Source: Rhodospirillales bacterium (GTDB taxonomy: Bacteria; Pseudomonadota; Alphaproteobacteria; Rhodospirillales; GLO-3). From it: DNA of 64,000 bases. This document shows positions 25,549-55,179 of this stretch, piece after piece. The DNA is taken from positions 2,224 through 66,223 of the forward strand of contig PIVK01000016.1 of assembly GCA_003354135.1 (NCBI GenBank), read 5' to 3'. The notes under the pieces were generated by a model. The model was not told where the DNA came from. It made no database searches and worked only from the letters and a program-made list of their open reading frames with translations. Within the stretch, counting starts at the first letter, position 1; every line of letters begins with the position of its first letter. Position numbers and translations under genes: made by a program.

Positions 25549-27036
25549 TTATCCGGTTCTTTTTGTATGCCTTCCGGGAGCACAATCGGCCGTAAGGCTC
25601 TCCAGGAGGGGAGCGGCCTTGACGAGCGTTTCCGCGTATTCGGCGGAGGGGTCCGAATCCGAGACCACCGCTCCCCCGGCCTGGGCGACCACGCAATCAT
25701 CCTCAATGACGATGGTGCGGATCGAAATGCTGGATTCGGATGCACCATTGAAACCCATCCAGACAATGGCGCCGCAATAAGGGCCGCGCCGCGCGGGTTC
25801 CAGTTCGTTGATGATCTCCATGGCCCGTATCTTGGGCGCCCCGGTGATCGATCCGCCTGGAAAGGACGCGCGGAACAGATCGATACAGCCGAGATCCGGC
25901 ATGAGCCGCCCCTGAATTCCAGAGACCAAGTGATGGACGGAAGCAAAGGTTTCGAGAGTCAACAGGTCGGTGGCTCGGACGCTTCCGGTCCGGCAGACCC
26001 GGGACAGGTCGTTGCGCAGCAGGTCGACGATCATCAGGTTCTCAGCCCGGTCTTTCTCGCTTGCGAGCAGGGAGGCCGCCAACGCCGCGTCATCGTCTGG
26101 TGTTTGCCCCCGTGGCCGCGTCCCCTTTATGGGGCGAGTGTCTACCAAACCATCAAACGACAGGCGTAGAAAACGTTCCGGAGACGCGGATAGCAGGTGA
26201 AAATTTTTACCGCAGGCGAGAAATGCGGCGAAGGGTGCGGGACTAAGCGCACGCAGACGACGATAGAGATGAATAGATTCGAGCCCGTCCACAAGTTTTC
26301 CCAGAAACCGTTGGGTGAGGTTAACCTGAAAGACGTCGCCAGCGTAGATGTAGTCGATGATCTTGGAGACCCTCTGTTCGTATTCGCTTTGGGTGACTTC
26401 CAAATTCCAGGAGCCTTTCAGCGTCCAGTCGATGGGCGCCAATGACGGTGCGTTCTCGATCCGCAAAGCCATGACTTTGGAGCGGGCTTCGGCGTTTCCT
26501 CTGGCTACGGATGTGGAGATGACCCAGGCCTGACGCTGGACGAGGTCGAAAACGGCGATGGTGTCATAGAAACCTATCACCATATCTGGAGCGCGGAGCC
26601 CCTCGGAGCTGGGGGCGGGCAGGCGTTCGATATGCCGCCCCAATTCGTAGCCAAGGAAGCCAACGGCGCCAGCCTGGAATGGGGGCAGGTCGGGATGGGT
26701 CTCCAACCGGTATTTTTCAAGCTCTCGCTCAAGGACGGTGAAGGGGTCACCCGAAACGGCTGTTCCGTCAACGGTGACACACGCCCCCGCTTCAATCACC
26801 CGGAAAGGGTCGGCGGCTATATAGGAAAACCGGCCCTGCCCGCTTGAACTGTCGGCGCTGTCCAGAAAAGCCGCCATCTTATCGTTGGCGAAAGGCGCAA
26901 AGGCTTCAAGAGGATCCCGAAAGGTGAGACGTTGAATATGAAAGTGTGAACATGCGGCCACTATGATAATTCCGTAAAATGTGGCTATCCGTAAAGTAGA
27001 CGCGAATATCCAAGAAATTGATGTAGATATCCGCAA
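25549..27036 (-). CDS. pabB: aminodeoxychorismate synthase component I
   Basis: It has chorismate-binding family motifs (SPERFL, FPGGSITGAPK, RGPYCGA). The start is uncertain (ATG 27036 or GTG 26961). Confidence 0.85.
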   Translation of the reverse strand: MRISTSISWIFASTLRIATFYGIIIVAACSHFHIQRLTFRDPLEAFAPFANDKMAAFLDSADSSSGQGRFSYIAADPFRVIEAGACVTVDGTAVSGDPFTVLERELEKYRLETHPDLPPFQAGAVGFLGYELGRHIERLPAPSSEGLRAPDMVIGFYDTIAVFDLVQRQAWVISTSVARGNAEARSKVMALRIENAPSLAPIDWTLKGSWNLEVTQSEYEQRVSKIIDYIYAGDVFQVNLTQRFLGKLVDGLESIHLYRRLRALSPAPFAAFLACGKNFHLLSASPERFLRLSFDGLVDTRPIKGTRPRGQTPDDDAALAASLLASEKDRAENLMIVDLLRNDLSRVCRTGSVRATDLLTLETFASVHHLVSGIQGRLMPDLGCIDLFRASFPGGSITGAPKIRAMEIINELEPARRGPYCGAIVWMGFNGASESSISIRTIVIEDDCVVAQAGGAVVSDSDPSAEYAETLVKAAPLLESLTADCAPGRHTKRTG

Positions 27037-27330
27037 AGCCGTAAGTTAAATGGTTTGCAGCCTTAAACCAAGGATTATATCGAACCAAGAATCACCGACC
27101 CCTCGTTATAGAAATAAAGACCTATAGAAAAAAGTCCTATGCCGTTAAGGAAGATTTTCTCGTTGCCCCCAAGCTCCAATTATGGCATCGTACAGTTCGT
27201 CTGGGAGGATAAATCGTCTAGTTTGATCGACTAGATTGCAATCAGAGCTATTAGTCTCACCAGGAAGTTTAAGCATTGGCGACGGTCCTAATTTATTGAT
27301 CCCGTTACCTATATGTGGAGGCGATAAGCC

Positions 27331-27405
27331 ATGAAGTGGGAAACGCCAGATTATTGCGACGTGCGTCTTGGTTTTGAAGTCACCGCTTACGCGTACGTAC
27401 GTTAA
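27331..27405 (+). CDS. pqqA: PQQ precursor peptide PqqA (24 aa)
   Basis: This ORF is not in the supplied track. The ATG follows GGAGG. It translates to MKWETPDYCDVRLGFEVTAYAYVR, which has the conserved E-x3-Y (EVTAY) cross-link motif. It lies directly upstream of pqqD/pqqE. Confidence 0.85.
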   Translation: MKWETPDYCDVRLGFEVTAYAYVR

Positions 27406-27499
27406 ACCCTGTGTGTTAAGGATAAAGCGGGACGTTGGATTCAGCGTCTCGCTTTCCTTTTTTTTCTTTAAATGATTTAACAGAACCCCAGATGTAACG

Positions 27500-27811
27500 A
27501 TGAACGTTAATGTTGACAATGCCCCGATCAAGCTAAGTGATCGGCCGGTGATTAACCCCCTGTATCTCTTCCGATGGGAAGAGCAAGAGAAGGCGTTCCT
27601 GCTGCTCTATCCCGAGGGCATCATCAAGCTTAACGATTCTGCGGGACAAATTCTCAATCTTTGCGGCGGCGAAAAGACTCTCGAAGAGATTCTCATCGAG
27701 CTGAAACAGATTTTCAGCACCGAAGACATCGACAGCGAAGACATCGACGAAGACATTTACAAATTTATGGAGGTCGCCATTGCCAAAGGATGGGTCAGAA
27801 TTAAGGCTTGA
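27500..27811 (+). CDS. pqqD: PQQ biosynthesis peptide chaperone PqqD
   Basis: The core YPEGIIKLNDSAGQILNLCGG is PqqD-like. It overlaps the pqqE start. Confidence 0.85.
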   Translation: MNVNVDNAPIKLSDRPVINPLYLFRWEEQEKAFLLLYPEGIIKLNDSAGQILNLCGGEKTLEEILIELKQIFSTEDIDSEDIDEDIYKFMEVAIAKGWVRIKA

Positions 27812-28931
27812 CGGTAGCGGGAGGCCATTATGGTTGGTTCTCGAATTAACCTACCGTTGCCCCCTGAAATGCCCGTGGTGCAACAACCCTCTGAATTATG
27901 GTGATTTCAGCAAAGAGGAGCTGACCACGGATGAGTGGAAGCATGTGTTGCGCGAGGCCAGACGGATCGGCAGCTTGCAATTGGGCTTTTCCGGTGGGGA
28001 GCCGCTTCTTCGCCCCGACCTGGAGGAGCTCATGGCGGAAGCCGATGGGCTTGGTTTCTACACCAACCTGATCACTTCGGGGGTGGGACTCACCCGTAAA
28101 CGTCTCGAAGCCCTTAAAAAGGCTGGGCTCAAGCAGATTCAGATCAGTCTCCAGCACAGCGACCCGGTCATCAACAACGCCATGGTCGGCGTCGATTCCT
28201 TCGAAGAAAAGATGGAAGCGATCCGCCACATTAAGGAACTGGGCTTCCCGGTTGTCATGAACGTGCCCATGTCGCGCTTCAACATCGATACGGCCGGCGA
28301 CATGATCGATCTTTGCGAAAAGAGCGGCATCGAGTTCCTGGAACTCGTCAATCTTCAGTACTACAACTGGGCGCTTCTCAACCGGGCCGAACTGCTGCCG
28401 TCCCGCGAGCAATTGGAAGAAGCCGAAGAGAAGGTCATCAAGGCGCGGGAGCGCCTCGGCAACGCCATGACCATCTACTTCGTCGTCCCCGATTATTTCG
28501 ATGGCCGGCCAAAGGCCTGTATGAACGGATGGGGCGCCATCCACATGACCATCGCCCCTGACGGCGCTGTCCTGCCCTGCCAGGAGGCGCGGGTGATCGA
28601 GGGCATGGAATTCCCCAAGGTTACCGAGCACGATCTGGGGTGGATATGGCATGAATCCCCCACTTTCATGAAGTTCCGGGGAAATGAATGGATGAAGGAA
28701 CCCTGTCAAAGCTGCGACGAAAAGGAAAAGGACTTTGGCGGATGCCGATGCCAGTCGTTCGTCCTGACGGGAGACGCGGCCAATACCGATCCCGCATGCA
28801 GCAAGTCCGAGCATTTCAAGATCATTGAATCCTCCGTTGAAAACGCACGCAACCGAATAGGACCGGGACTGCCTCTGGTGATGCGGTCCCGCGGTTCTAT
28901 CGGGTCCGATTTGAAGGCGTTGAGACCGTGA
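27780..28931 (+). CDS. pqqE: PQQ biosynthesis radical SAM protein PqqE
   Basis: A TTG start follows GGAGG. PLWLVLELTYRCPLKCPWCNNP contains the CxxxCxxC motif. The C-terminal SPASM cysteines are present. Confidence 0.9.
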   Translation: MPKDGSELRLDGSGRPLWLVLELTYRCPLKCPWCNNPLNYGDFSKEELTTDEWKHVLREARRIGSLQLGFSGGEPLLRPDLEELMAEADGLGFYTNLITSGVGLTRKRLEALKKAGLKQIQISLQHSDPVINNAMVGVDSFEEKMEAIRHIKELGFPVVMNVPMSRFNIDTAGDMIDLCEKSGIEFLELVNLQYYNWALLNRAELLPSREQLEEAEEKVIKARERLGNAMTIYFVVPDYFDGRPKACMNGWGAIHMTIAPDGAVLPCQEARVIEGMEFPKVTEHDLGWIWHESPTFMKFRGNEWMKEPCQSCDEKEKDFGGCRCQSFVLTGDAANTDPACSKSEHFKIIESSVENARNRIGPGLPLVMRSRGSIGSDLKALRP

Positions 28932-39956: not shown

Positions 39957-41084
39957 TCAGTTTCTGGGATAGTTTTGCACGGGCCTCTTTAGTTTATTGA
40001 GGTGAGACCAAGGCAAATGACCACCGTGCTGAAGCCTGCCAACAACGATTCCAGGTGCAATTCCCTGCTGATCGGCAAATGCACGTATAACCCGCTCACT
40101 ACGTGGCGATCCTTCTACGAACGTTGCCCATGCTTTACTTGGGATAAGAGTATTGGATGCCCACTCATCAGCCTCAGCCTCAGCCTCAGCCTCAGCCTCA
40201 AAGTCACAGCCATCGCCGTCGGCCCCCCCATCAACAAAAATACTCTTCTTGCTATGCAGCAGAATATGCCCAGCCTCGTGGAAGAAGCTGAACCAGAGAT
40301 GATCATCCGACTTGTGCCGCGCACTCAGCTGAATGACGGCCTTTCGGGGTGAGACCCACCACGCAGCACCACTGAGCGCGGTCTTGGGAAGCTGCGGCAC
40401 CAGTGCGAGGGTAACGCCTGCCTTATTACATAGCTCAACAGTCCGCTGAAGAGCTTCGTCAACCGGTTCGCGCGTTAAACCCCGGATTTTTCGGGCGGCT
40501 TGCTTAAATCGGCTCTCATTATAATCTGCACAATCTTGGCGTTCAGCTTCAAGTTCGCCAAGCCGCCGCCACGTAGCCAAAGCGACCTCGCTGCTATCGA
40601 AGCTTGGGGAATGCCGATAGGCCACATTCGCAAAACTATAGCGCGCGACCCAAGCATCGATCGATCCTACTCCAAAGAACGCAAGCAACTTCGATACGGC
40701 ATCGACATCCGATTCAGGCTGCTGAATACATCCGCGATTCATCAGATCACGAACCGGGAAGGCCTTGCTCCACTCCGCCGATGCAGCCGCACATTCTGCC
40801 TCGGTCTCCCGGGCCCTATGAAGCTGGTAGTCAGTTTCGATTCCAAGCCAGATACTGGCATCAACGCCGAGCACCTTCTCAAATTGGAGTGCCGTTTCCG
40901 GTTCAAGCGAGGCCTTACCCGCGATGATTTCGCTGATCAGCTTGGGAGAACGCCCACACCTGCGCGCAAATTCCGCATGCGAAATTCCCTGGACATCCAA
41001 ACGCTCCTCCAAAACCCACCCCGGTGGAATCGCATAGTCTGGATTATATTTTTTTGTAGCTGTGGCCATAGTCCTCTCCTCCAT
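39957..41084 (-). CDS. XRE-family HTH antitoxin fused to ImmA/IrrE-type zinc peptidase
   Basis: The N-terminal HigA-like HTH is GISHAEFARRCGRSPKLISEIIAG. The C-terminal HEXXH is FFHEAGHILLH. It lies immediately downstream of higB. Confidence 0.75.
   Translation of the reverse strand: MEERTMATATKKYNPDYAIPPGWVLEERLDVQGISHAEFARRCGRSPKLISEIIAGKASLEPETALQFEKVLGVDASIWLGIETDYQLHRARETEAECAAASAEWSKAFPVRDLMNRGCIQQPESDVDAVSKLLAFFGVGSIDAWVARYSFANVAYRHSPSFDSSEVALATWRRLGELEAERQDCADYNESRFKQAARKIRGLTREPVDEALQRTVELCNKAGVTLALVPQLPKTALSGAAWWVSPRKAVIQLSARHKSDDHLWFSFFHEAGHILLHSKKSIFVDGGADGDGCDFEAEAEAEAEADEWASNTLIPSKAWATFVEGSPRSERVIRAFADQQGIAPGIVVGRLQHGGHLPWSHLNKLKRPVQNYPRN
40171..40200. repeat. hexanucleotide microsatellite (GCCTCA)x5 inside the XRE-ImmA CDS
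   Basis: There are five perfect copies. On the minus strand they encode (EA)5. Confidence 0.9.
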
Positions 41085-41419
41085 CAGTGATAGTCGATCA
41101 CGTCCAAAATGGTGATCGCGGTCACCTGTTCCGTATCGATCCCTCCATCGCCCTTGCGCGGGAGCGATTCGTGATTGGGTTCGAAAACAAGTCTATGAGG
41201 GTGAACAAGATCGACAGCGAACTGTTCGTCTCGGTCTCCGCTGAGCTGATGTCGCCTATCCGGTGGCGTTGTCGGCACCAGCCCCAGATTACGGGCCACC
41301 TTCAAAACCGCCATTCGCTTCTTGATCACCTTCGCCATCCGCGCTCCATAGGTCTTCTGGAGAGCAACTGCCGCATTGAATGTCTTTCTGAGCTTGAGGG
41401 TCCGGAAGGCGATATCCAA
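41084..41419 (-). CDS. higB: HigB-like (COG3549 'killer protein') toxin
   Basis: The C-terminal pattern is HQLSGDRDEQFAVDLVHPHRLVFEP...ILDVIDYH. Compare the family consensus L.GDR.GQ.SIRIN.Q.R..F....V.I.DYH. Confidence 0.7.
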   Translation of the reverse strand: MDIAFRTLKLRKTFNAAVALQKTYGARMAKVIKKRMAVLKVARNLGLVPTTPPDRRHQLSGDRDEQFAVDLVHPHRLVFEPNHESLPRKGDGGIDTEQVTAITILDVIDYH

Positions 41420-41539
41420 TAATCTTACTCGTTTTCGTTACGTGATAAGTAATTATTTACACCAGAACACCAAGGGACACAAGGAGGAATACGCTGGAAA
41501 CAGCCCTACCTTCTCATCGCGGATTGATGGGCGGCCAAG

Positions 41540-42247
41540 TTATGAATGTTCACGGGCCTTCAAAATCGAGACGATCTGAGGGGCGCTCAAATCACCACCA
41601 GTCAGCATGCGCCGCATCGGCTCGAACGTCATGAGCATCTGCCTGTATCCGGTAAGCCGTCCAGAATGTGAATTCAAATCCCGGTTTTTAAACGACGGGA
41701 ACCGGTTCATCTTGTCAACGAGGAATCGCGCAATGCTGTAATGGTCAGATTCATAGTTTCCATCGAAACCAGGAAAGCGAACATCTTTACCGAATGGGTC
41801 CAGTTCCGCCGCAACCTGTTTCTTCTGCTCATCCGAGAGACGTCCGTAACCACTTTCCAGGAATAACCACATATCCAGAATATTTGCGACCTCAGAGACG
41901 ATCTGTTCACGATCCTGGTGGCTATGAAGAATGCCAGGGTATTCCCATGCCAAACCCCAATAGTGACCACCCATGAGCGCCGACAGAATAAAATCAGGGT
42001 CGACTTCGCCGTTCTTAATGTTCAGCCCACGATAGATATCGCAGAGCATGGTCATAATAAGCTTCTCGCCATCACTAATCAGCACTCCGTTTTCACCGAA
42101 CTGCTGGAGACCAACCTCCATGAGACGACGAACCGCCTCAGCCCTGGATACGCCATCATCTTGTCCTCTACGCCATCGGTCGAGCCGGTCGAGCATTCCT
42201 TGATCAAGGCGCATCTCAAATCGTTCTGTTTTAGACTTCATTGTCAA
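41540..42247 (-). CDS. YfbU (UPF0304)-family protein with N-terminal ribbon-helix-helix segment
   Basis: The N-terminus FEMRLDQGMLDRLDRWRR...SRAEAVRRLMEVGL is RHH-like. The remainder aligns by eye with the YfbU pattern (LIMTMLCDIY...ILDMWLFLE). Confidence 0.6.
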   Translation of the reverse strand: MTMKSKTERFEMRLDQGMLDRLDRWRRGQDDGVSRAEAVRRLMEVGLQQFGENGVLISDGEKLIMTMLCDIYRGLNIKNGEVDPDFILSALMGGHYWGLAWEYPGILHSHQDREQIVSEVANILDMWLFLESGYGRLSDEQKKQVAAELDPFGKDVRFPGFDGNYESDHYSIARFLVDKMNRFPSFKNRDLNSHSGRLTGYRQMLMTFEPMRRMLTGGDLSAPQIVSILKAREHS

Positions 42248-42292
42248 TCCCCATATACATTACGGCACAAATGCGGGTAGCCCGTACATTTA

Positions 42293-42307
42293 TCCGTATA
42301 ATACGGA
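42293..42307. promoter_or_regulatory. 15-bp palindrome TCCGTAT-A-ATACGGA upstream of the RHH-YfbU gene
   Basis: The arms are perfect 7-bp inverted repeats. It lies 46-60 nt upstream of ATG 42247 and contains a TATAAT/TATTAT -10-like core. Confidence 0.45.
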
Positions 42308-42784
42308 CGTTTGCCGCAGAACACAATAGGGCATGTCGGCGTGACCGTCCCACTCGCTGACATGTCGCGCTACAACCTTCAAAGGGTGCCTCGATGGGAG
42401 CCGGTCGGGTCAAAAACAATACAAGGTTGGGCCATTTCATTGAGAACCAGGGCCTAACCCAAATAACCTGAAGGTCATAGCGCCTATGCCTCTGAAAACG
42501 TCGGGTTCAGATTGAGCAACCCGAAGTATGGCAATTCGGATTTCCGTTGATCAGTCATCCTGGAAATTTCCATTTGATGTCCGGCTTTTCGGCGGACGCC
42601 CATTTGTCGTCGATTTCAACCGGGCAGTCCAGGTCCGCTTGCGCAACAAAGCCCCTTCCGGACGGCATTCGCTTTCGAATGGATGGGGATGGATTTTTGG
42701 CGGGGTTCGTGGATTAATTGTGCCCGCAGACTTTGTAAGCATTCGGAACGTGTTCGAATTTTTGATTTTGGGGAGCCTTTCGTA

Positions 42785-45700
42785 ATGATTTCGGCAAGAG
42801 GAATTCTGGTTGGTGCCTTTTTGGGGGTCTTCACCACAATTTTCCTTTCCGCGGAGGCGGTCGCGGATTTCCGGGTGGAGGCATTCTCCCCTCAGGGAAA
42901 TGTCCGTGACGTTCGGCAGGTCCATGTCCGGTTTTCCGAGGAGGCCGTCGCCTTTGGCGATCCGCGGGACCGAGATGCCCCGTTCACGACCGACTGCCCG
43001 CAAACAGCCCAATCGCGCTGGGTCGACGGCAGGAACTGGGTCCATGAGTACAAGGAGCAGCTTCCCGGCGGGGTGCGCTGTGTTTTCAACGCCCGACCGA
43101 GTTTGAAATCGTTGGCGGGTCAGCCCCTGACCGGGGAGAGCGCGTTCATCTTTTCTACGGGGGGCGCGACACCGCTCGCGGTCTATCCCGGCGAGGGGTT
43201 CAGGGACATCTCTCCCGATCAGGTCTTTATCCTGGCACTCGATGCGCCGGCCGATCCCTCGTCCGTCGAGCAGCATGCCTATTTCGAGGTGGAGGGCATC
43301 GCAAGCCGGGTGGAGGTCTCCGTCCTTCCGGCCGGGAAAACGTCCGAGATCGCAGAAGATATCTACCGCTCGGTCTGGCCGGAGCAAAGCGGGTCGGTCG
43401 AGGAAACGGCCAAAATCGCGGAAGGGATCTACCTTTTTCGCCGCATGAGGGAAAAGCCCAAGATCGGCCTGCGGGCCAAACAGAGATTCCCGCCCGGCAG
43501 GAAGATCAGGCTGATATGGGCGCGGGACATAGAAACGCCGGGCGGTGTGCCCACGGGTCGGGATGAACACCGGGCTTTCGACTACACAAGTGCGCCGCCG
43601 TTCACCGTGAGCGTTCGCTGTCGGCGAAAAGACGAGTCCGAAGGGTGTGACCCCTTAGGCGAAATTCGGCTCGTCTTTTCATCGTTTGTCGATGCGGCGC
43701 AGGTCGCGGAGATCAAACTGATGGGCGGGCCGAGGGGGAAACGGGTGGCGGAACCCAGGAGCAAGGGCGCCACGCGCCACGCGGTGTTCCATCCACCGTT
43801 TCCACCGAACACGGAATTCCGGGTGGTAATTCCGGAGAACCTGCGGAGCATGGACGGTCGCAGTCTCCCCGGAGGGGGAAGCGGAACGGTCGAAATCGCC
43901 ACCGGTGACTTTCCACCCCTCGCCAAGTTTTCCGGCCGTTTCGGTATTTTGGAACGAGAGGACAGCCCGGTCCTCCCGGTCACCATCCGAAACCTTGAGC
44001 CCGACCTGAAGGTCAGATCCGAAGTCAGCTCTTCCCCGGCCTACGGACTGCGTCATTGGCTGCAGGACGCCATTCGGGATCTTAGCGGCAGGACTCTTCG
44101 GCTGTCACCTGACCAGAGCGGGCACGCCTCGGAACAGCGCCGGGAAATCGTGCGCTACATGCAGAAGCTCCATGCAGTCGATGGCGTCGCGCAGTATCGA
44201 AACAGCCTGATCGGCGGCCAGGAAACGGGGCCGTCGGCGGAGCGGCTCAGGATTCCTCCCCCCAAAGGCAGAAACCGGACCGAAGTGGTCGGCATTCCCC
44301 TGGAGGACCCTGGTTTCTACATCGTCGAAATCGCGAGCCGAAATCTGGCGGAGCAGCTGCTGAACAGGCCCGACCGGCCGGTGGAGGAACCGCCAAAATA
44401 CATGTACGCCGCGACCGGCGCGTTGGTGACCAACATGTCCGCGCACTTGAAACGCGGGCGGGAGAACGCGTTGATTTGGGTGACCCGCCTGAACGACGCA
44501 GAACCGGTGCAGGGCGCAAAGGTCTCGGTCCTCAATTGCCGGGGCGAAGAGATTTGGATCGACGAAACCAATGCCGACGGCGTCGCGATCTCCAAGACGC
44601 CCTTACCGGAAACCCGGTGCAGTTTGCGGCCCTACCAATCCGGTCTGTTCGTTTTTGCCGAACACCGTGGCGACGTCACCTTCGCCCATTCCTCTTGGGA
44701 CGACGGAATAGAGGTCTGGCGGTTTCCGGGAACACGCCATTCGACGGCCAACAGGCAAACACCGCTGATCGGTCATACCGTATTGGGCCGCTCCCTTTTC
44801 CGGGCGGGCGAGACCGTATCCATGAAGCATTTCCTGCGGCGGCACCGGAGCAACGGCATGGATGTTCCCGATACCCTCGAGGCGTGGAACTCCATGGAAA
44901 TCATCCACCGGGGTTCGGGTCAGAAGTTTCAATTCAATCTCGACTGGGACGCGCTGGGGATCGCGCAGACCACCTGGACAATTCCGAACGCGGCCAAGCT
45001 CGGCACCTACACGGTTTCGTTCAAGAAGAAGAAAAAGAAACGCCGCTGGAAAACCATCATAACCGGGAGTTTCGACGTCCAGGAATTCAAGGTGCCTCTG
45101 ACCAGAGGAACCATCAAAGGACCGGAGACCAAGCTGGTCCGGGCCACGTCATTCCCGCTAGATTTCGGCGTCCGCTATCTTGCCGGTGGAGGGGCCGGCG
45201 GACTGCCGGTGAAACTGCGAAGCCAGTTTACCGAGGCCCGTTCCGTCTTTCGATCCAAGGGATACCCCGGTTTTGCCTTCAACGCCGGAGCCCCGCGCAA
45301 GGACCCGTGGAAACCGGAACGCCGGACACTGGCCCATACGGCGCTGAAATTGGATGACGCGGGGACCGGTCGATACACTTTGTCGGATATTCCCGCCTCC
45401 GATAAGGCGGTCAACGTGCTCACGGAAATGAGCTACCGCGATCCCAACGGGAACATTCGTACGGTCGTTCACCGCGAAACCGTCCATCCGTCCCGCTGGA
45501 ACGTCGGCATCAAGGCGAAGAGCTGGATTCCGAAAGACGGCGAACTCTCCTTTACCGCGGTACTCCTGGATTTGGACGGCACGCCCGTGCCGGGCAAGAG
45601 CCTCGGGATTGATCTCGTCAAGCAAGAACACCTATCCCACAGGAAGAAGCTTGCCGGCGGGATCTATGGTTATGAACATGAGGTGAAACTGACGCCCCTG

Positions 45701-48538
45701 GGGCCGTTTTGCGAGGGAACAACGGACGACGATGGACGTCTTACGTGCGCGAAACGCGTCGAGCACTCCGGTAAAATCTACGGTGTCGCTCGGGTCGATA
45801 CCCCCGAGGGCATAGAGCAGGTTACACATGCCGGCGCTTGGGTGCCGGGGAAGGACGCATGGTGGTTCAGGGCCTCGGACACGGACCAGATGGATGTCCT
45901 GCCCGAGAAACGGAGTTACGAGCCCGGAGACACCGCGCGCTTTCAGGTCCGCATGCCGTTCCGGAAGGCTCGTGCCCTGGTTACCGTGGAGCGCGAGGGC
46001 GTTCTCGATTACTTCCTTCAGACGCTCGACGGGAATGCGCCCATTGTCTCGGTGCCCATCCGCGATACCTTTGCCCCCAATGTCTATGTGGGGGTTCTCG
46101 CGGTGCGGGGGCGGGTGGCCGACATCAAGCCCACCGGCCTCGTGGACCTTGGGCGGCCCGCATTCAAGTTGGGCATGGCCGAGATCGATGTCGGATGGAG
46201 ACGCCATCGGCTGGATGTTGTCGTAGAAGCCGAGCGCGAAGTCTATGAAGTTCGCGATAAGGCAACCGTGCGTGTTCGCGTAAAACCGAGGAACGGCAAT
46301 CCTCTTCCAAAGAACGCCGAAGTCGCGGTTGCCGCAGTCGACGCAGGCCTACTGGAATTGAAACCCAATAACAATTGGGATCTCCTCGGCACCATGATGG
46401 GACCGCGTTCCAACGAGACCGTTACCGCCACCGCTCAGATGCGGGTCGTTGGAAAGCGGCATTATGGTCAGAAGACGCGCCCCGACGGTGGCGGTGGCGG
46501 ACGGGGCACGGTCCGCGAGGTGTTCGACTCACTGTTGTTGTGGAAAGGAAGGGTGGCGCTCGACGAGAACGGAGAGGCGGTCGTCCGGATTCCGCTCAAC
46601 GATTCCCTGACGCGGTTCAAGATCGTCGCGGTCGCGTCGGCCGGAGAGGACAAATTCGGCACCGGATCGACGTCGATCCGGACTACGCAGAGTCTAATGA
46701 TCTTTCCGGGAATTACGCCCCTGGTGCGCGAGGGCGATCGGATTATCACGCCGTTCACGCTTCGCAATACGACGGACGATCCCATGGATCTGTCCGTATC
46801 CCTTTCAGTGCAGGGGATGGAGCAGGCACCGTCTCCGCGCGACGTCACGGTTCCGGCCAAGGACAGCGTGATGGTTTCTTGGGATATGACGATCCCATTC
46901 GATCAACGTGTTCTTCGGTATCATCTCGAAGTCCGCAAAGGGGACCAGATCGCCGATGCCCTTTCGATAGAGCAGAAGGTCAAACCGGCCGTCCCCGTGC
47001 GCGCCCTGCAGGGCACGTTTGCCCAGTTGACCGAGCCCTTCACGATGACGGCACGCATTCCCGACGACGCCGTGCCGGGGCGCGGCGGCATGAAGATCGA
47101 GGCCAGTACCAGCTTGGTCGACGTGGGTTTGAGCGGGGTGGTCGATTATATGCGGAGCTACCCATATAGCTGTTTCGAACAGCAGGCATCCGTGGCCGTT
47201 GCACTCGGCGATGCCGCCCGGTGGGAATCCCTGATGAGCAGGCTCGCCCTGTATCTGGATGGTAACGGGCTGATCAAGTATTTCCCCCGCATGCGGCGCG
47301 GAAGCGTGGTGTTGAGCGCCTATATCCTGGCTATTGCCCATGAGCGCGGCTGGGCCGTTCCGGACGGTGAGCGCCAGCGGGTTCTTCGGGGATTGCGGAA
47401 CTTCGTGACCGGGCGTTTGCACCGCGTCGACATCTTCGTCGAGGAATACATGAGCGTCGTCAAGCTGCAGGCGATCGAGGTCTTGAGCCGCTACGAGATG
47501 GCATCCCCGGACCTTCTTGAGAGCATCGAAATCCATCCCCGCGAGCTTCCAACCTCGGCCTTGATGGATTGGCTCAACATCCTTTACCGCGTGACGGGGA
47601 TTGCCGATGCCGATCGTCTGAGGAGCGAAAGCGAGAACCTCCTTCGGTCGCGTATTCGCTACGACGGCCGCATCATGCGGTTCACCACAAGTGAACGCGA
47701 CGACCTGTGGTGGCTCATGACCGACGGTGACTCCAATGCGATCCGTTTTCTTCTCACGGCAATGGAGTTCGGCCTTTGGTCCGACGACCGGGCGCGCCTC
47801 CTGGAGGGAGCCCTATCGCGACAGCAAAAAGGACATTGGAAGCTGACGACCTCCAATGCCTATGGCGCGGTCGCGTTGCGGAAATTCGCTGCCGCATTCG
47901 AGAGAGAGACGCTCGACGGACTGACCCGCATCCGCTTCGGGCCCGAGACAGCGGACGTCCCTTGGCAGGACGGGAAGACGAAAGGCGAAGCCCTGCTTCC
48001 CTGGGGCGGGATCGGAGAACGGAGGGACCTTGAGATGCGTCACGAGGGGAAGGGGGCCCCCTGGGTCTCGGTGCTGAGCATGGCGGCCGTTCCCTTCAAG
48101 GTCCCCGTCGACGCCGGCTTCGCCGTCCGCAAGACGATAACACCCATCACCCGTAAATCGGAAGACAGGTGGAGCGTAGGAGACGAAATCCGGGTCCATC
48201 TGGAAATCGATGCTCCGGCCGACATGACATGGGTGGTCATCGATGATCCGGTCCCGGCCGGCGCCGCAATGATGGGGAGCGGCCTCGGCGGTGAAACCGT
48301 CATTGCCCAGCAGGGGGAAGAGACCAAGGGACGCGCCCGTCTCGCGTTTAAGGAGCATGCCTTTGACGGCATGCGAGCCTATTTTTCCTTCGTTCGTCAA
48401 GGGACATGGTCTTTGGATTACACCTATCTCTTGAACGCTGCGGGAACCTTCCAAATGCCTCCGACCCGGGTCGAGGCTTTGTACAAACCCGAAATGTTCG
48501 GTGTTCTGCCCAATGAGACATTTGTTGTCGAGGAATAG
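42785..48538 (+). CDS. bacterial alpha-2-macroglobulin family protein (thioester-containing)
   Basis: It is 1917 aa from ATG 42785 and has a signal peptide. The thioester motif CFEQ lies at 47171-47182. pbpC follows directly. Confidence 0.88.
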   Translation: MISARGILVGAFLGVFTTIFLSAEAVADFRVEAFSPQGNVRDVRQVHVRFSEEAVAFGDPRDRDAPFTTDCPQTAQSRWVDGRNWVHEYKEQLPGGVRCVFNARPSLKSLAGQPLTGESAFIFSTGGATPLAVYPGEGFRDISPDQVFILALDAPADPSSVEQHAYFEVEGIASRVEVSVLPAGKTSEIAEDIYRSVWPEQSGSVEETAKIAEGIYLFRRMREKPKIGLRAKQRFPPGRKIRLIWARDIETPGGVPTGRDEHRAFDYTSAPPFTVSVRCRRKDESEGCDPLGEIRLVFSSFVDAAQVAEIKLMGGPRGKRVAEPRSKGATRHAVFHPPFPPNTEFRVVIPENLRSMDGRSLPGGGSGTVEIATGDFPPLAKFSGRFGILEREDSPVLPVTIRNLEPDLKVRSEVSSSPAYGLRHWLQDAIRDLSGRTLRLSPDQSGHASEQRREIVRYMQKLHAVDGVAQYRNSLIGGQETGPSAERLRIPPPKGRNRTEVVGIPLEDPGFYIVEIASRNLAEQLLNRPDRPVEEPPKYMYAATGALVTNMSAHLKRGRENALIWVTRLNDAEPVQGAKVSVLNCRGEEIWIDETNADGVAISKTPLPETRCSLRPYQSGLFVFAEHRGDVTFAHSSWDDGIEVWRFPGTRHSTANRQTPLIGHTVLGRSLFRAGETVSMKHFLRRHRSNGMDVPDTLEAWNSMEIIHRGSGQKFQFNLDWDALGIAQTTWTIPNAAKLGTYTVSFKKKKKKRRWKTIITGSFDVQEFKVPLTRGTIKGPETKLVRATSFPLDFGVRYLAGGGAGGLPVKLRSQFTEARSVFRSKGYPGFAFNAGAPRKDPWKPERRTLAHTALKLDDAGTGRYTLSDIPASDKAVNVLTEMSYRDPNGNIRTVVHRETVHPSRWNVGIKAKSWIPKDGELSFTAVLLDLDGTPVPGKSLGIDLVKQEHLSHRKKLAGGIYGYEHEVKLTPLGPFCEGTTDDDGRLTCAKRVEHSGKIYGVARVDTPEGIEQVTHAGAWVPGKDAWWFRASDTDQMDVLPEKRSYEPGDTARFQVRMPFRKARALVTVEREGVLDYFLQTLDGNAPIVSVPIRDTFAPNVYVGVLAVRGRVADIKPTGLVDLGRPAFKLGMAEIDVGWRRHRLDVVVEAEREVYEVRDKATVRVRVKPRNGNPLPKNAEVAVAAVDAGLLELKPNNNWDLLGTMMGPRSNETVTATAQMRVVGKRHYGQKTRPDGGGGGRGTVREVFDSLLLWKGRVALDENGEAVVRIPLNDSLTRFKIVAVASAGEDKFGTGSTSIRTTQSLMIFPGITPLVREGDRIITPFTLRNTTDDPMDLSVSLSVQGMEQAPSPRDVTVPAKDSVMVSWDMTIPFDQRVLRYHLEVRKGDQIADALSIEQKVKPAVPVRALQGTFAQLTEPFTMTARIPDDAVPGRGGMKIEASTSLVDVGLSGVVDYMRSYPYSCFEQQASVAVALGDAARWESLMSRLALYLDGNGLIKYFPRMRRGSVVLSAYILAIAHERGWAVPDGERQRVLRGLRNFVTGRLHRVDIFVEEYMSVVKLQAIEVLSRYEMASPDLLESIEIHPRELPTSALMDWLNILYRVTGIADADRLRSESENLLRSRIRYDGRIMRFTTSERDDLWWLMTDGDSNAIRFLLTAMEFGLWSDDRARLLEGALSRQQKGHWKLTTSNAYGAVALRKFAAAFERETLDGLTRIRFGPETADVPWQDGKTKGEALLPWGGIGERRDLEMRHEGKGAPWVSVLSMAAVPFKVPVDAGFAVRKTITPITRKSEDRWSVGDEIRVHLEIDAPADMTWVVIDDPVPAGAAMMGSGLGGETVIAQQGEETKGRARLAFKEHAFDGMRAYFSFVRQGTWSLDYTYLLNAAGTFQMPPTRVEALYKPEMFGVLPNETFVVEE

Positions 48539-50645: not shown

Positions 50646-50874
50646 CGTGTCTCCTCGGCATTCGTTTCGAGGCAGCTACAAACGAAACCGCTTGATTGAA
50701 GTTCAACAGTTTGGCACCATATCTGGAGCTAGGAATCCTGTAATTTTCAATATGTTGAGGATCGGCTGAGTAACAGGGGCAACCCCCCGGGCATTCATGC
50801 GTTGCTGTGCTGACGGACGAGGTTGGGCAGGAGTGGGATGTTGGGTGCACCTTGGACATGGAGTCGGTTGCCCA

Positions 50875-53800
50875 ATGCCGATTGTTAAAAGGTTCTTTAA
50901 AAGGTTCTCTAAACTATCCGAGGCAATGGCCAGTTCCGCTAATGCGGAACCTTTACCGCTTTCCGCGTTCTTCGACTATCGCGCCATTGTTATTCTCGGG
51001 GAGCCTGGAATCGGCAAGACCACGGCGTTTGCTGCATCCAACAAAGAGGAAGGGAATGCCATATGCTGCACTGTCAGCGAGTTCCTGAATTTTCCTGACG
51101 GTGAATTTTGGGGCAAGACGATTTACCTCGATGCCTTGGATGAGCATCGGGCGGAGGAGGCCGGACAATCCGTAATAGCGGCGATTGTCGGTAAACTTCG
51201 AAAGCTCGGATCACCGAAAGTCCGCCTGTCCTGCCGAACGTTAGAATGGCACGGGGGGAGTGACGTCCGGGGACTGGGAAAGGCCGCGCAAGGCGAGGAC
51301 GTCCAAATTCTCAATTTGCTGCCCCTTTCGCCGGAGGATATCGAAACCATAGTTGCCGAGCAGGTGAATGATGTAAGTGCGTTCCTCGATGGTGCACGGC
51401 AAAGGGACTTGGAAAAACTCCTTTCCAACCCTGAAACCCTGAAGCTCTATTTGGAGGTATACAAGGATAGTGGCGGGTGGCCCGAGACCCGAAAAGACTT
51501 AATGAAAAAATCCGTCGCTTTGCTGCTGCGCGAGGAAAACGAGCAGCACACTCGTGTGCGAAGCGACAAAGTCTCTGATGAGAGGTTGAGGGCCGCCGCC
51601 GAAGACCTATCGGCGATTCACGCGTTCAGTAATGCGAAGGGGTTTACCTTATCGAAAGCAACTAAGGTAGCTGAGCATCCACCAATCCAGGAACTGACGG
51701 ATATCGACCTTGAGGCGGCAGGAATTGCAGCGCGGAGTAGACTGTTTGAGTCCAAGCCTTCCGGTTCCATAAAACCACAGCACAAGACGACGGGGGATTT
51801 CCTGGCAGCAACGGCATTGGCGCGCAGAATCTTAAAAGGTCATTTATCTCGGGGACGCGCCGACGGTCATTTATCTCGGGGACGCGCCATGTCCCTGATC
51901 ACGGGTAAGGATGGGAGGACACTGTCCCACCTTCGGGACATATACGCATGGCTAATCGCCCTGTTGCCGGGAGACGGGCAATATCTCTTACATGCCGATC
52001 CGTTCGGCGCATTGGTTTACGGGGATGTGGCGCAGTGGCCTGACGCGACCAGACGGGATTCCCTGAACATCTTGAGAGAGTATGCAACCAAGGATGATCC
52101 GTGGTTCCGCTCCGGGCATTGGCAGACTCCGTTGCTCGGTGGTTTGGCATCCGAGGGCATGGTGGAAGATTTCCGCCGAATTTTGAAAAACGAAGAAGAC
52201 CCCGGTGTAACGGGTGTCGTATTGAGCGCTCTTAAATACGGTTCCCGGTTACCGGAAATGGGTGATGACCTGTTGGTGTTTGTGCGCGATGAATCACGCC
52301 TTGAATGGCTCAAAAACGAAGCCCTGTTTGCACTCATCAATAATTGCCCGGATCGCATTTCTGACCTGAAAGAGATTCTGGGTGAAGTCCATTCGGGAGA
52401 TATCTCTGACAAAGACTTGGCCCTACGCACAACGCTTTTGTGTCAGCTTTATCCATCCGTCATCACCCCAGACGAGGTCGTTGAGTATTTCGTTAACGAT
52501 GGCCAAATAGCCTTAGGCAATTTCGGTTATTTCATTCACTGCAAATTAGTGCCCCTCACTCCTGACGAGGCATTGCCGAATCTGGCCGATGCCATGATTG
52601 CCCGTTCCGATAAGGTGAGACTGCTGAGTGATTTTGATAAAAAGCATATGGTCGGGCCCTTGGTGATCCAACTTCTAAAAGTACATGGAGACACGGCAAC
52701 GCCGGGAATGATTTTCAAGTGGCTAGGGCTCTATTTGGACAAGTACGGTCAGCACCGTCTGGACAACGATCATCAGAAATTTATCAGGGCCTATATCGAA
52801 GGGCGTGATGGCCTTTATGAGGCATTGTTCCGGTATTGGTTAGCGCACAGCAAGCCATCGGAGGACGAGCCTTGGTACGAATATGAATTTGGGTACCGAG
52901 TGCTCCATGCCGCAAAGCCAAGCAGCTTCTGCGCTACCCTACTTTCGATGGCGGAAAGGGAATCGGATCAATCTAAAGCCGATATGTTGTTCACTGAAGC
53001 GGCAAACCAGGTCATGCATGCCGATCCTGGGATCTTGCCGATTGTTTTGGATGACCTATATGAATTTGCTGTTCAGCATCCTCGTTTCTTATCGACATGG
53101 GACAAGGTGTGCTGGTGTGGTCTGTATGACCGCCATTTCGAACATAAGCTAGAGAAGCAGAGCCATCAGGATGATCAGAAGGCGCGCCGCACGGCGGATG
53201 TCAAATTTCTAAAAAGCCAGATTGCTGATCTTCGCGCCGGCCGGGCCATTCAAAGTCTCCGTTATGGGGCAGAGCATTGGTTTGGCTATTCAATGGGATC
53301 AGATGGAAAACTTCAGCCGTTTGAGCGCCTTGCTGAGGTAACAAGCACTGACATTGCGAAAGCCATGGCGGCCGGATTCGAGGTTCTTCTAAAAGGCAAG
53401 GAGCAGCACAGCCCAGCGTCCATTGCCGAGCTTGCCTGCAAATCACAGAGTCACTATGTGGGCTACCCAATTCTAGCCGGTGCCGATATCGTAGCGGCAC
53501 GCTCCCAGGAGGAATTCCTTGCGTTACCTGACGCAAATCTCAAGGCCGCACTAGCCTATCGAGTTCTTTTTCCGTGCCCTGAGCACGATTGGGAGGACTG
53601 GATTTTTAAGCACAAACCAGCTTTGGGACAGGAGGTTCTTGAGGATGTATGGCGTGCCGAAATTAAGGGTGGAAAAACGCGGGACTTGAGCAGACTTTAT
53701 ATCGAAAAAACAGAGAATCCCGTCACCCTGCTGATCCTTAGGGGCATTCAAAAAGTTCTTACTGAAAATCCGCAGCCTTCCGCAGAAATTTTGCGCACCA

Positions 53801-54927
53801 TGTTAACCGCCATTCTACAACATGGCGATCCTGAGGTGTTGCGAAGCATTGCCGTACCCACGCTCCAAAGCGGCAAGCTGCGTGGCGAAAAACATACCCT
53901 TTGGCTGGCCACTGCGAGCCTGCTGGACCCGGGAACCTACTCCCAGAAACTGAAACGGAAAGCGAAAGAAAGTGTTCGGGACATGTGGGCGGCCTATCAT
54001 ATTTTGATAGCAGGCGCGGGAAGTCCGATGAACGGTTATGAGAGGACCCCACAGCTACAGATGGCGATTTCGATCCTTGGTAGTATGTTCGGGTTTAAGC
54101 GTAAAAAGCGTAAAAAACGTGATAGGTGCGTCTCAGAAGTGGACCCTAATGAGAAAGCGACCCGAGAGATCAACGACCTGATCAACGCCCTGTCAGGCTT
54201 ACCAACGCAAGATGCGGCCCATTCATTAGAGGCGCTGTGTACGGACCAGTCATTGCATGAATGGAGCGAGCACCTACTCCATGCAAAGACGCTGCAGGCC
54301 AAGAACATGCGGGATATGACGTTTAAACCTGTCAGCCCGGCGGAGGTCTGCAAATTCCTGGCAAACGGTGCTCCGGCGAACATGCAGGATCTGCAAGCGA
54401 CCACATTGGATATTCTAGACGATATCGCTCCAACGATTCATGACTCGAACACCAACCGTTGGAAGAATTTCTGGGGGCTTCGCGGGCGCGGCAAACCAGA
54501 ACGACCGAAGATCGAAAACGATTGCCGTGATGTCTTGCTGGATATGATGCGGCCCGCATTTGCTGCGCGTGACATAACAGCCGAGCCTGAAGCGTGTGCC
54601 GCAAACGACAAGCGTGTCGATATCCGCCTGACATCAAGAGATATCGGTACGCTGCCCATAGAGATCAAACGTGACGAGAACCCGGAAGTGTGGTCCGGCA
54701 TGGAGGAACAGCTGGTCCGGCTCTACGCTAACGACCCGAACACGCATGGGCGCGGAGTATTCTTGGTGTTTTGGTTCGGAGACGGGAATTTGGCGGGGCC
54801 TCCGAAAAAACTAGGGATATCAAAGCCAAAGACCGCCGATGAATTGCAAAAGGCACTTGAGAGAATCAAGCCTAATCGATGTATCGAAGTGAGGGTCATG
54901 GATGTATCCAAGCCTAATGACGGGTGA
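50875..54927 (+). CDS. NACHT/STAND-type P-loop NTPase with long helical region and C-terminal PD-(D/E)xK-like nuclease module
   Basis: Walker A is GEPGIGKTT (50998-51024), and the Walker B-like segment is IYLDALDE. SNPETLKL is also present. About 900 aa are helical. The C-terminus has ENDCRD...RVDIRL...LPIEIKRD (D at 54619, ExK at 54661). The gene is more AT-rich than its flanks. Confidence 0.75.
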   Translation: MPIVKRFFKRFSKLSEAMASSANAEPLPLSAFFDYRAIVILGEPGIGKTTAFAASNKEEGNAICCTVSEFLNFPDGEFWGKTIYLDALDEHRAEEAGQSVIAAIVGKLRKLGSPKVRLSCRTLEWHGGSDVRGLGKAAQGEDVQILNLLPLSPEDIETIVAEQVNDVSAFLDGARQRDLEKLLSNPETLKLYLEVYKDSGGWPETRKDLMKKSVALLLREENEQHTRVRSDKVSDERLRAAAEDLSAIHAFSNAKGFTLSKATKVAEHPPIQELTDIDLEAAGIAARSRLFESKPSGSIKPQHKTTGDFLAATALARRILKGHLSRGRADGHLSRGRAMSLITGKDGRTLSHLRDIYAWLIALLPGDGQYLLHADPFGALVYGDVAQWPDATRRDSLNILREYATKDDPWFRSGHWQTPLLGGLASEGMVEDFRRILKNEEDPGVTGVVLSALKYGSRLPEMGDDLLVFVRDESRLEWLKNEALFALINNCPDRISDLKEILGEVHSGDISDKDLALRTTLLCQLYPSVITPDEVVEYFVNDGQIALGNFGYFIHCKLVPLTPDEALPNLADAMIARSDKVRLLSDFDKKHMVGPLVIQLLKVHGDTATPGMIFKWLGLYLDKYGQHRLDNDHQKFIRAYIEGRDGLYEALFRYWLAHSKPSEDEPWYEYEFGYRVLHAAKPSSFCATLLSMAERESDQSKADMLFTEAANQVMHADPGILPIVLDDLYEFAVQHPRFLSTWDKVCWCGLYDRHFEHKLEKQSHQDDQKARRTADVKFLKSQIADLRAGRAIQSLRYGAEHWFGYSMGSDGKLQPFERLAEVTSTDIAKAMAAGFEVLLKGKEQHSPASIAELACKSQSHYVGYPILAGADIVAARSQEEFLALPDANLKAALAYRVLFPCPEHDWEDWIFKHKPALGQEVLEDVWRAEIKGGKTRDLSRLYIEKTENPVTLLILRGIQKVLTENPQPSAEILRTMLTAILQHGDPEVLRSIAVPTLQSGKLRGEKHTLWLATASLLDPGTYSQKLKRKAKESVRDMWAAYHILIAGAGSPMNGYERTPQLQMAISILGSMFGFKRKKRKKRDRCVSEVDPNEKATREINDLINALSGLPTQDAAHSLEALCTDQSLHEWSEHLLHAKTLQAKNMRDMTFKPVSPAEVCKFLANGAPANMQDLQATTLDILDDIAPTIHDSNTNRWKNFWGLRGRGKPERPKIENDCRDVLLDMMRPAFAARDITAEPEACAANDKRVDIRLTSRDIGTLPIEIKRDENPEVWSGMEEQLVRLYANDPNTHGRGVFLVFWFGDGNLAGPPKKLGISKPKTADELQKALERIKPNRCIEVRVMDVSKPNDG
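51838..51891. repeat. 27-bp in-frame tandem duplication inside the NACHT gene
   Basis: GGTCATTTATCTCGGGGACGCGCC occurs at 51838-51861 and 51865-51888. This gives GHLSRGRA-D-GHLSRGRA. Confidence 0.9.
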
Positions 54928-55103
54928 GTGGACTGGCCCCCGTTTCGACCGGACAGTCGGCATGGACGCGGTGGCGGTAGCCGGCGCCCTCGATCCGAAC
55001 GACGATGGGGGCCCTGAACGCCTCGCCCCATTCGGCGAAGCCGCAGCTTTCATTTACCGGGAGAACCGACAAAAGCCCCATGAAGGGGGCCCGTTCACGG
55101 GTA

Positions 55104-55179
55104 TGGCTGGGGCGGGAGGACTCGAACCTCCGAATGCCGGTACCAAAAACCGGTGCCTTAACCACTTGGCTACGCCCCA
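55104..55179 (-). tRNA. tRNA-Gln (anticodon TTG)
   Basis: The manual cloverleaf is as follows. The acceptor is TGGGGCG/CGCCCCA. The anticodon arm is CCGGT-TTTTGGT-ACCGG. The T arm is GGAGG-TTCGAGT-CCTCC. The 3' end is an encoded GCCA. It is close to E. coli tRNA-Gln. Confidence 0.9.

Follow-up and report, generated by a model that had tools for sequence, protein, structure and literature searches.

A probable antiviral STAND receptor of the EruA family, with a predicted C-terminal nuclease domain, in a Rhodospirillales genome

What does a single, long gene of low GC (guanine plus cytosine) content do between pbpC and a tRNA-Gln gene in the genome of a Rhodospirillales bacterium? The gene lies at 50875-54927 of a 64,000-nucleotide (nt) stretch of contig PIVK01000016.1, the whole of which was analysed and is called the window here. 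A first-pass annotation, made from the sequence alone, had proposed that its product of 1350 amino acids (aa) is an NLR-like defence protein with an inverted layout, in which a nucleoside triphosphatase (NTPase) module is followed by a sensor and then a nuclease, and that it might represent an undescribed family. The evidence gathered below indicates, with a probability that we put at roughly 0.8, that the product is a stand-alone STAND/NLR-like receptor with an antiviral role, a member of the Erebus (EruA)/Avs10 family from a divergent subclade that is mainly alphaproteobacterial. The gene and the parts of its product, identified from open reading frames (ORFs), alignments and AlphaFold2 (AF2) models, are as follows.

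50875-54927, plus strand: complete EruA-like gene with NACHT, presumed sensor and predicted nuclease parts; 1350 aa, stop codon included (ORF list, translation, homologue starts, NF058535)
50980-51474, plus strand: NACHT nucleotide-binding domain, residues 36-200 (invariant columns, AF2, Foldseek)
50998-51024, plus strand: Walker A motif, G42-T50, within the nucleotide-binding domain
51121-51144, plus strand: Walker B motif IYLDALDE, residues 83-90, within the nucleotide-binding domain
51475-51906, plus strand: helical and winged-helix part of the NACHT module, residues ~201-344 (AF2, Foldseek, alignments)
51907-54351, plus strand: helical (alpha-solenoid, HEAT/TPR-like) region, residues ~345-1159, presumed sensor (models, identity profile)
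54352-54924, plus strand: C-terminal domain, residues ~1160-1350 (AF2, invariant residues, Foldseek)
54490-54789, plus strand: predicted PD-(D/E)xK core, residues ~1206-1305, inside the C-terminal domain
54619-54621, plus strand: D1249 on strand beta2, a position of the predicted catalytic set
54661-54669, plus strand: E1263-x-K1265 on strand beta3, a position of the predicted catalytic set

The family assignment begins with a match over nearly the full length of the protein. Residues 24-1345 align with positions 12-1318 of the 1318 positions of NCBIfam profile NF058535, a curated model with the name "NACHT domain-containing antiphage protein EruA" (E=7.6e-246), which agrees with the defence role first proposed, and the model of the related HyoA (NF058534) is matched at E=2e-43. 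A search of 5.8 billion proteins returned 171 relatives, about 110 of them full length (1300-1440 aa) with identity down to ~25%; many of the relatives carry the precomputed Pfam annotation DUF8371, and for homologues of 1310-1440 aa the alignment spans 100% of the query. The architecture is shared as well, with an N-terminal NACHT module, a long helical sensor and the family C-terminal domain in one polypeptide of ~1340 aa. The equivalog cut-off of the EruA model is 1000 bits. It is passed, with 1009-1155 bits, by nine homologues (P0035, P0066, P0039, P0071, P0056, P0045, P0060, P0074 and P0050), which share 27-30% identity with the window protein and include a Pseudomonas cluster and an Azotobacter protein. 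Because these nine relatives pass the cut-off and the window protein's own clade scores 820-990 bits against the same model, we place the window protein on a divergent branch of the EruA family. Single-sequence searches of the protein against Pfam, PADLOC (2023) and PDB sequences returned nothing significant.

The motifs on which the NLR-like reading had been built were found at the expected residues on translation: GEPGIGKTT (42-50), IYLDALDE (83-90) and SNPETLKL (184-191) near the N-terminus, and ENDCRD (1214-1219), RVDIRL (1247-1252), LPIEIKRD (1260-1267) and GVFLVFWFG (1294-1302) near the C-terminus. They exceed chance: when 109 full-length homologues, some of them only ~25% identical, were aligned, the residues listed next showed little or no variation. 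On the N-terminal side the conserved residues are G42, P44, G45, G47, K48, D86, D89, E90 and P186, together with R117/R121 in the sensor-1 region of the nucleotide-binding domain, W125 and the winged-helix residue H303; on the C-terminal side they are E1214, R1218, E1239, D1249, E1263, K1265 and W1300. The Walker A motif reads G42-E-P-G-I-G-K48-T, in agreement with GxxGxGK[ST], and the Walker B motif reads I-Y-L-D86-A-L-D89-E90, in agreement with the NACHT form (hhhhD with acidic residues at +3/+4). H303 (51781-51783) lies within HKTTGDFLAA, which across the family takes the form H-[KR]-T-x-x-[DE]-[FY]-L-A-A and agrees with the winged-helix His signature of NLRs.

Structure prediction recovered the NLR NACHT fold from the protein's N-terminal part. 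The AF2 model of residues 1-540 had a predicted local distance difference test (pLDDT) score of 91.2, and its best Foldseek matches were an NLRP in 9w2m (E=3e-8), NAIP/NLRC4 (1e-7) and the bacterial protein Avs4 (2e-6), with further matches to NLRP3, TPR-STAND, SAMD9 and Avs5; those to NLRP, NAIP/NLRC4, NLRP3 and Avs4 all had probability 1.00, with E from 3e-8 to 1e-4. Just 35 residues lie ahead of the first NTPase strand in this model, and the protein therefore has no N-terminal effector, as had been noted from the sequence.

At the other end of the protein, modelling supports the assignment of the C-terminal domain to the PD-(D/E)xK fold, as a predicted nuclease with a complete and invariant catalytic set. 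The AF2 model of residues 1050-1350 (pLDDT 91.9) has the order alpha-beta-beta-beta-alpha-beta, made up of a helix (1214-1230), three strands (1235-1241, 1247-1254 and 1258-1266), a second helix (1275-1284) and a last strand (1294-1300). E1214 opens the first helix, E1239 lies on beta1, and Q1279 and Y1284 lie on the helix after beta3; D1249 on beta2 and E1263-x-K1265 on beta3, both invariant, stand where the PD-(D/E)xK topology places them. The top Foldseek matches, all weak at E>=0.02, were NucS/EndoMS, SfsA, Can2, McrC, Mus81, SwaI, EcoRV and Cas4, and all of the leading PDB matches are PD-(D/E)xK nucleases. The models thus bear out the proposed order of NTPase, variable helical region and C-terminal restriction-endonuclease fold. 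Related C-terminal domains were found in 1722 cluster representatives, and in all of the 150 best of these the domain stands at the C-terminus of its protein.

Between these two modules lies the presumed sensor. The portions of residues ~345-1159 that fall within the two models (1-540 and 1050-1350) are all-helical, and a HEAT-repeat TOG domain profile matches the region weakly. Mean pairwise identity is lowest at residues 541-1150 (0.21-0.23), higher in the nucleotide-binding domain (0.37) and highest in the nuclease core (0.44), a pattern that is as expected of an immune receptor in which a conserved effector and switch flank a diversifying sensor.

We infer that the symbols EruA and HyoA stand for Erebus and Hypnos, systems of van den Berg et al. 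2024. The grounds are the letters of the names, the fact that the two, each a NACHT antiphage protein, have neighbouring accessions and models that match the same protein, and the literature's grouping of the two systems. The gene symbols EruA and HyoA and the name DUF8371 retrieved nothing relevant in the literature searched. PMC13581612 (Nature 2026; preprint PMC12803255) names "Avs10 (Erebus/Hypnos/bNACHT64)", citing Kibby et al. 2023 and van den Berg et al. 2024. The paper reports that the phage major capsid protein activates Avs10, that in AlphaFold models the HK97-fold A-domain is bound at its penton/hexon-forming interface, and that mutation or deletion of the effector abolished death in all families tested. 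Erebus is already a DefenseFinder subtype, found in Pseudomonas and on plasmid pQBR49, with its mechanism described there as unclear. With an NCBIfam model for EruA, another for the related HyoA and, by the identification made above, published names for both, the suggestion of an undescribed family does not hold, nor does the novelty of the inverted layout, since some bacterial NACHT proteins were already noted to have effectors at the extreme C-terminus (Kibby et al., bioRxiv 10.1101/2022.07.19.500537).

Erebus/EruA (Avs10) is the closest of the known systems, sharing with the window protein a length of ~1340 aa, collinearity from end to end, the succession of NACHT module, helical sensor and the same C-terminal domain, and a single-gene make-up, with plasmids and defence islands among its settings. 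The window protein differs in its score (819.5 bits, <1000), in being 25-30% identical to the proteins above that cut-off, in its alphaproteobacterial subclade (Rhodospirillales, Azospirillum) and in a private 9-aa duplication. With Hypnos (HyoA) the homology extends from the NTPase to the C-terminal domain, residues 137-1305 corresponding to positions 195-1384 of 1430 in NF058534, and in other family members the match extends to profile position 1429. The match is much weaker, at 148 bits against a cut-off of 1200, and the HyoA model is ~100 residues longer, the match beginning ~60 positions deeper in the profile than in the window protein. Like bNACHT25 and its kin (Kibby et al., bioRxiv 10.1101/2022.07.19.500537), the window protein joins a NACHT module to a predicted effector of restriction-endonuclease fold in what is probably a single-gene, abortive-type defence system, but the Mrr-like nuclease of bNACHT25 is N-terminal, whereas the predicted nuclease of the window protein follows the sensor. 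Avs1-4 and Avs7, which carry Cap4/Mrr-type nucleases, are STAND NTPases too, and the mechanism proposed below for the window protein follows theirs: a conserved structural protein of the phage is wrapped by a large helical sensor, and oligomerisation activates the nuclease. Their effectors are N-terminal and their sensors are different. The animal NLRs (NLRC4/NAIP, NLRP3) share the Walker B form D-x-x-D-E and the winged-helix His and are the best structural matches of residues 1-540, but the window protein has no leucine-rich-repeat sensor and no CARD or PYD adaptor, and its similarity to them is not detectable by sequence profiles.

Analogy with Avs1-4, Avs7 and bNACHT25, together with the account of Avs10 in PMC13581612, suggests how the window copy might work, from trigger through oligomerisation to nuclease activity. 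At rest the protein would be an autoinhibited monomer. On infection the helical sensor would wrap itself around a protein of the phage; by the precedent of Avs10 this is most likely the major capsid protein, which has the HK97 fold. Binding would free the NTPase module for nucleotide exchange and ATP-dependent oligomerisation. The oligomer would juxtapose the C-terminal PD-(D/E)xK domains in an active assembly that might cut DNA indiscriminately, so that phage replication would stop and the cell would be killed or arrested, as in abortive infection. A more daring variant, which we think rather unlikely, is that the sub-threshold alphaproteobacterial subclade has a sensor re-targeted to something other than an HK97 capsid, and that nuclease assembly is driven from the sensor end of the protein and not from the NTPase end. 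If that were true, a C-terminal nuclease placed after the sensor would represent an activation geometry structurally undescribed for any STAND protein.

In the genomic neighbourhoods of the homologues no neighbour family recurs across unrelated loci, and the system is therefore a single-gene one, as the first-pass annotation had it. In Burkholderia cenocepacia the homologue lies between a TerB/BrxC-D-like/DEAD module and a set comprising JAB-ThiF, BrxR and Wadjet, and a NERD gene lies close by; at another locus it lies between BrnTA with an AAA_14/DUF4143 ATPase and a restriction-modification enzyme of the MmeI type; and on a Pantoea plasmid it lies between Ppl, an integrase and an Abi gene. 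Hachiman adjoins the homologue in Shinella, and type IIG restriction-modification enzymes adjoin it in Pararhizobium and Mesorhizobium. A survey of 116 ORFs lying within 5 kb at 14 loci also gave hits to Borvo, PDC-S01, DrmC and methyltransferases, along with conjugation genes and HipA. Thirty-four plasmids carry a homologue, of which 20 are conjugative. The homologues are thus horizontally mobile, often plasmid-borne and often in defence islands, the point that a survey proposed with the first reading was meant to test. Two other readings of these neighbourhoods were considered and set aside: a multi-gene system, as neighbour families recur only among closely syntenic genomes, and a conserved housekeeping role, as the contexts vary and are often a plasmid or a defence island. 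A search of E. coli genomes by DNA with the Pantoea homologue found nothing.

Several of these neighbourhoods held features of their own. An AAA_14/DUF4143 ATPase gene at L004 (8740-9996) ends 4 nt before the EruA-like gene, and its domain pair occurs in 2/116 neighbour ORFs (alignment A5). In Rhizobium leguminosarum (L020:6759-10790, minus strand) a 1343-aa protein with an N-terminal helix-turn-helix and an nSTAND5-type NTPase is encoded 2.6 kb from the EruA-like gene; by BLAST it is not homologous to the EruA family, so that two different STAND receptors stand side by side. Immediately downstream of their EruA-like genes, Shinella, Pseudotabrizicola and a Mesorhizobium metagenome-assembled genome (MAG) have three conserved ORFs in common (~338, 100 and 281-315 aa; L026:14039-16604, L027:14069-16736, L034:14060-16631). 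These have no Pfam or PADLOC match and may travel with the gene as a cassette or belong to cargo that the islands share. The only match in the phage collection (hit H26) was a partial homologue at MT835554.1:30142-33372, 27% identical over residues 271-1344. The contig, named "Bacteriophage sp.", comes from human faeces and is 33 kb long, and the homologue starts ~30 nt from its end; this may be a defence gene borne by a phage or satellite, or the contig may be mis-binned. Beside the Thalassococcus homologue, the large subunit of ribonucleotide reductase (L022:18130-21804, minus strand) has an intein with a LAGLIDADG homing endonuclease.

One feature of the window copy sets it apart from its relatives.

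51838-51891, plus strand: tandem repeat with a 27-nt period, 24 nt identical and 3 nt differing, encoding GHLSRGRA twice

The first-pass annotation had described this as a perfect 27-bp in-frame duplication. The repeat is in frame, but the identity covers 24 nt of the 27-nt period: 51838-51861 equals 51865-51888 exactly, and the closing three bases of the two units differ, GAC vs ATG. It amounts to a lineage-specific insertion of 9 aa (GHLSRGRAD) that is found in none of the 17 closest homologues, and it precedes a conserved L-P-L-x-R motif in which R337 is invariant. In the AF2 model the insertion falls in a lower-confidence loop (residues 321-330, pLDDT 74). The duplication is probably tolerated, although it could weaken the allele.

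Several observations weigh against the assignment of this gene as an Erebus/Avs10-type receptor. The score of the window protein is under the equivalog cut-off, and its functional equivalence to the tested Erebus proteins is accordingly not guaranteed, while the identification of EruA with Erebus is our own. A PADLOC search had been proposed with the first reading; PADLOC-DB v2.0.0 (2023), whose models span known and candidate defence systems, was run on the protein and gave 0 families at E<=1, and it was the curated antiphage model NF058535 that matched instead. The Pfam NACHT profile PF05729 matches neither the window protein nor any of the 36 family members searched, where only weak matches to AAA_16, AAA_22, nSTAND3 and nSTAND5 were found, and no Pfam nuclease model matches any of the 36. 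The structural matches of the nuclease domain are weak, the best at E=0.02, with template modelling (TM) scores of 0.26-0.32 on the 301-residue model. Several homologues (L002, L022 and L024), like the window copy, lie among housekeeping genes only. The sensor region is ~21-23% identical across the family, and the trigger of the window copy may differ from that of Avs10; finally, the unique duplication next to R337 could impair this copy.

Four competing explanations were weighed. It is possible, though we think it rather unlikely, that the family and the killing mechanism are as proposed but that what this divergent alphaproteobacterial subclade detects is a component, of a phage or of a plasmid, different from the major capsid protein. 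Conservation is lowest in the central region, the window protein and its closest relatives all fall under the EruA cut-off, and PMC12803255 describes sensor swaps among STAND clades; yet the EruA alignment is collinear over the whole sensor, without domain replacement, and Avs sensors are reported to recognise folds across very divergent homologues. It seems improbable that the window copy is a decaying or inactive allele in which the duplication by R337 disrupts the transmission of the signal from winged helix to sensor. The insertion is unique among the 18 aligned sequences, and the duplicated segment includes an invariant Arg, but the ORF is intact through 1350 codons, all the invariant residues are kept, and the insertion is in frame and within a lower-confidence loop between two helices.

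Also quite improbable is a C-terminal domain of PD-(D/E)xK fold that is not the effector at all, serving instead as a module for DNA binding, DNA-end sensing or oligomerisation, with toxicity arising otherwise. Inactive PD-(D/E)xK folds are known, the likeness to solved nucleases has E of at least 0.02, and the nuclease-family sequence profiles are silent. Set against this, the full set of E, D and ExK is invariant across the 109 sequences and lies in the most conserved region, no other candidate effector domain is present in the protein, and Avs10 effector mutants, whichever domain the mutation lies in, are reported in PMC13581612 to lose toxicity. Very improbable, in our estimation, is a gene without an immune function, whether a housekeeping or regulatory STAND ATPase or one part of a multi-gene system with its partner elsewhere; the housekeeping neighbours of the window copy and of L002, L022 and L024 would fit such a role, but the context is not conserved, no partner recurs, homologues are frequently carried on plasmids and in defence islands, the curated antiphage model matches, and the composition of the gene is anomalous relative to its flanks. 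An antiviral receptor of the EruA family is therefore the reading that we prefer.

As such, the gene adds a divergent alphaproteobacterial branch (Rhodospirillales, Azospirillum and Rhizobiales plasmids) to a recently named antiviral STAND family, a branch that escapes current equivalog thresholds and the 2023 PADLOC models. The alignment and models also yield residue-level predictions for mutagenesis at K48, D86/D89/E90, H303, D1249 and E1263/K1265. The family, its defence role and a trigger are already published, and in that sense the locus opens no new question.

The longest ORF at this locus is 50797-54927, of 1376 aa, and it includes a short extension ahead of the gene as we define it.

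50797-50874, plus strand: upstream in-frame extension of the longest ORF, 26 codons, absent from homologues; GGAG stands 11 nt before the ATG at 50875

The start was placed at 50875 because 17/17 of the closest homologues begin at the equivalent MPIV.RFF, in which V4 and R6 are invariant in the alignment; the bounds 50875-54927 first given for the gene were therefore correct, and judging from sequence the 26-codon extension is probably not translated. No sigma-70-like promoter or terminator above chance was found around the gene.

How the gene came to stand here is suggested by its composition and its neighbours.

55104-55179, minus strand: tRNA-Gln(ttg), found by ARAGORN; its 3' end faces the gene stop, 177 nt away
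50650-54930, no strand: low-GC single-gene islet, ~0.52 GC, approximate bounds, between pbpC and a GC-rich spacer before tRNA-Gln

The flanking genes are pbpC (TIGR02073, 48501-50645), a TIGR02302-family gene, lysA and argH. The AT-richness noted in the first reading proved real as a local contrast, with GC of 0.49-0.56 within the gene vs 0.60-0.69 in the flanks; over the window GC ranges from 0.47 to 0.68, and at 10-30 kb it is also 0.51-0.58. The distance of 177 nt to the 3' end of tRNA-Gln, the sole tRNA in the window, was likewise as noted, but its value as evidence for an integrase-type island is only circumstantial, as the ORF list and a repeat search found no integrase and no att-like direct repeat flanking the gene. 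An empty pbpC-tRNA-Gln site was not found, the nearest metagenome relatives of pbpC being ~50% identical and none having tRNA-Gln downstream. Most likely the gene reached this genome as a single-gene islet beside tRNA-Gln. Its closest homologue (59% identity, in a Rhodospirillales MAG; L001:650-4654) also lies ~180 nt from the 3' end of a tRNA.

The tRNA beside the closest homologue is a tRNA-Thr (ggt) at L001:396-470, on the 5' side of the gene. tRNAs also occur near the homologues at L015 (tRNA-Ser, 1.5 kb) and L027 (tRNA-Arg, 4 kb). Taken together, these cases hint that insertion close to tRNAs may recur, with no integrase visible in the window. Elsewhere in the window, GC falls to 0.467 at 27001-28000 and to 0.51-0.53 at 41001-43000, and the window may contain further acquired regions. 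A 1951-aa ORF (42683-48538, plus strand), for which NCBIfam gave no match at E<=1e-5, shares 38 nt with the start of pbpC, a gene whose usual partner is an alpha-2-macroglobulin gene.

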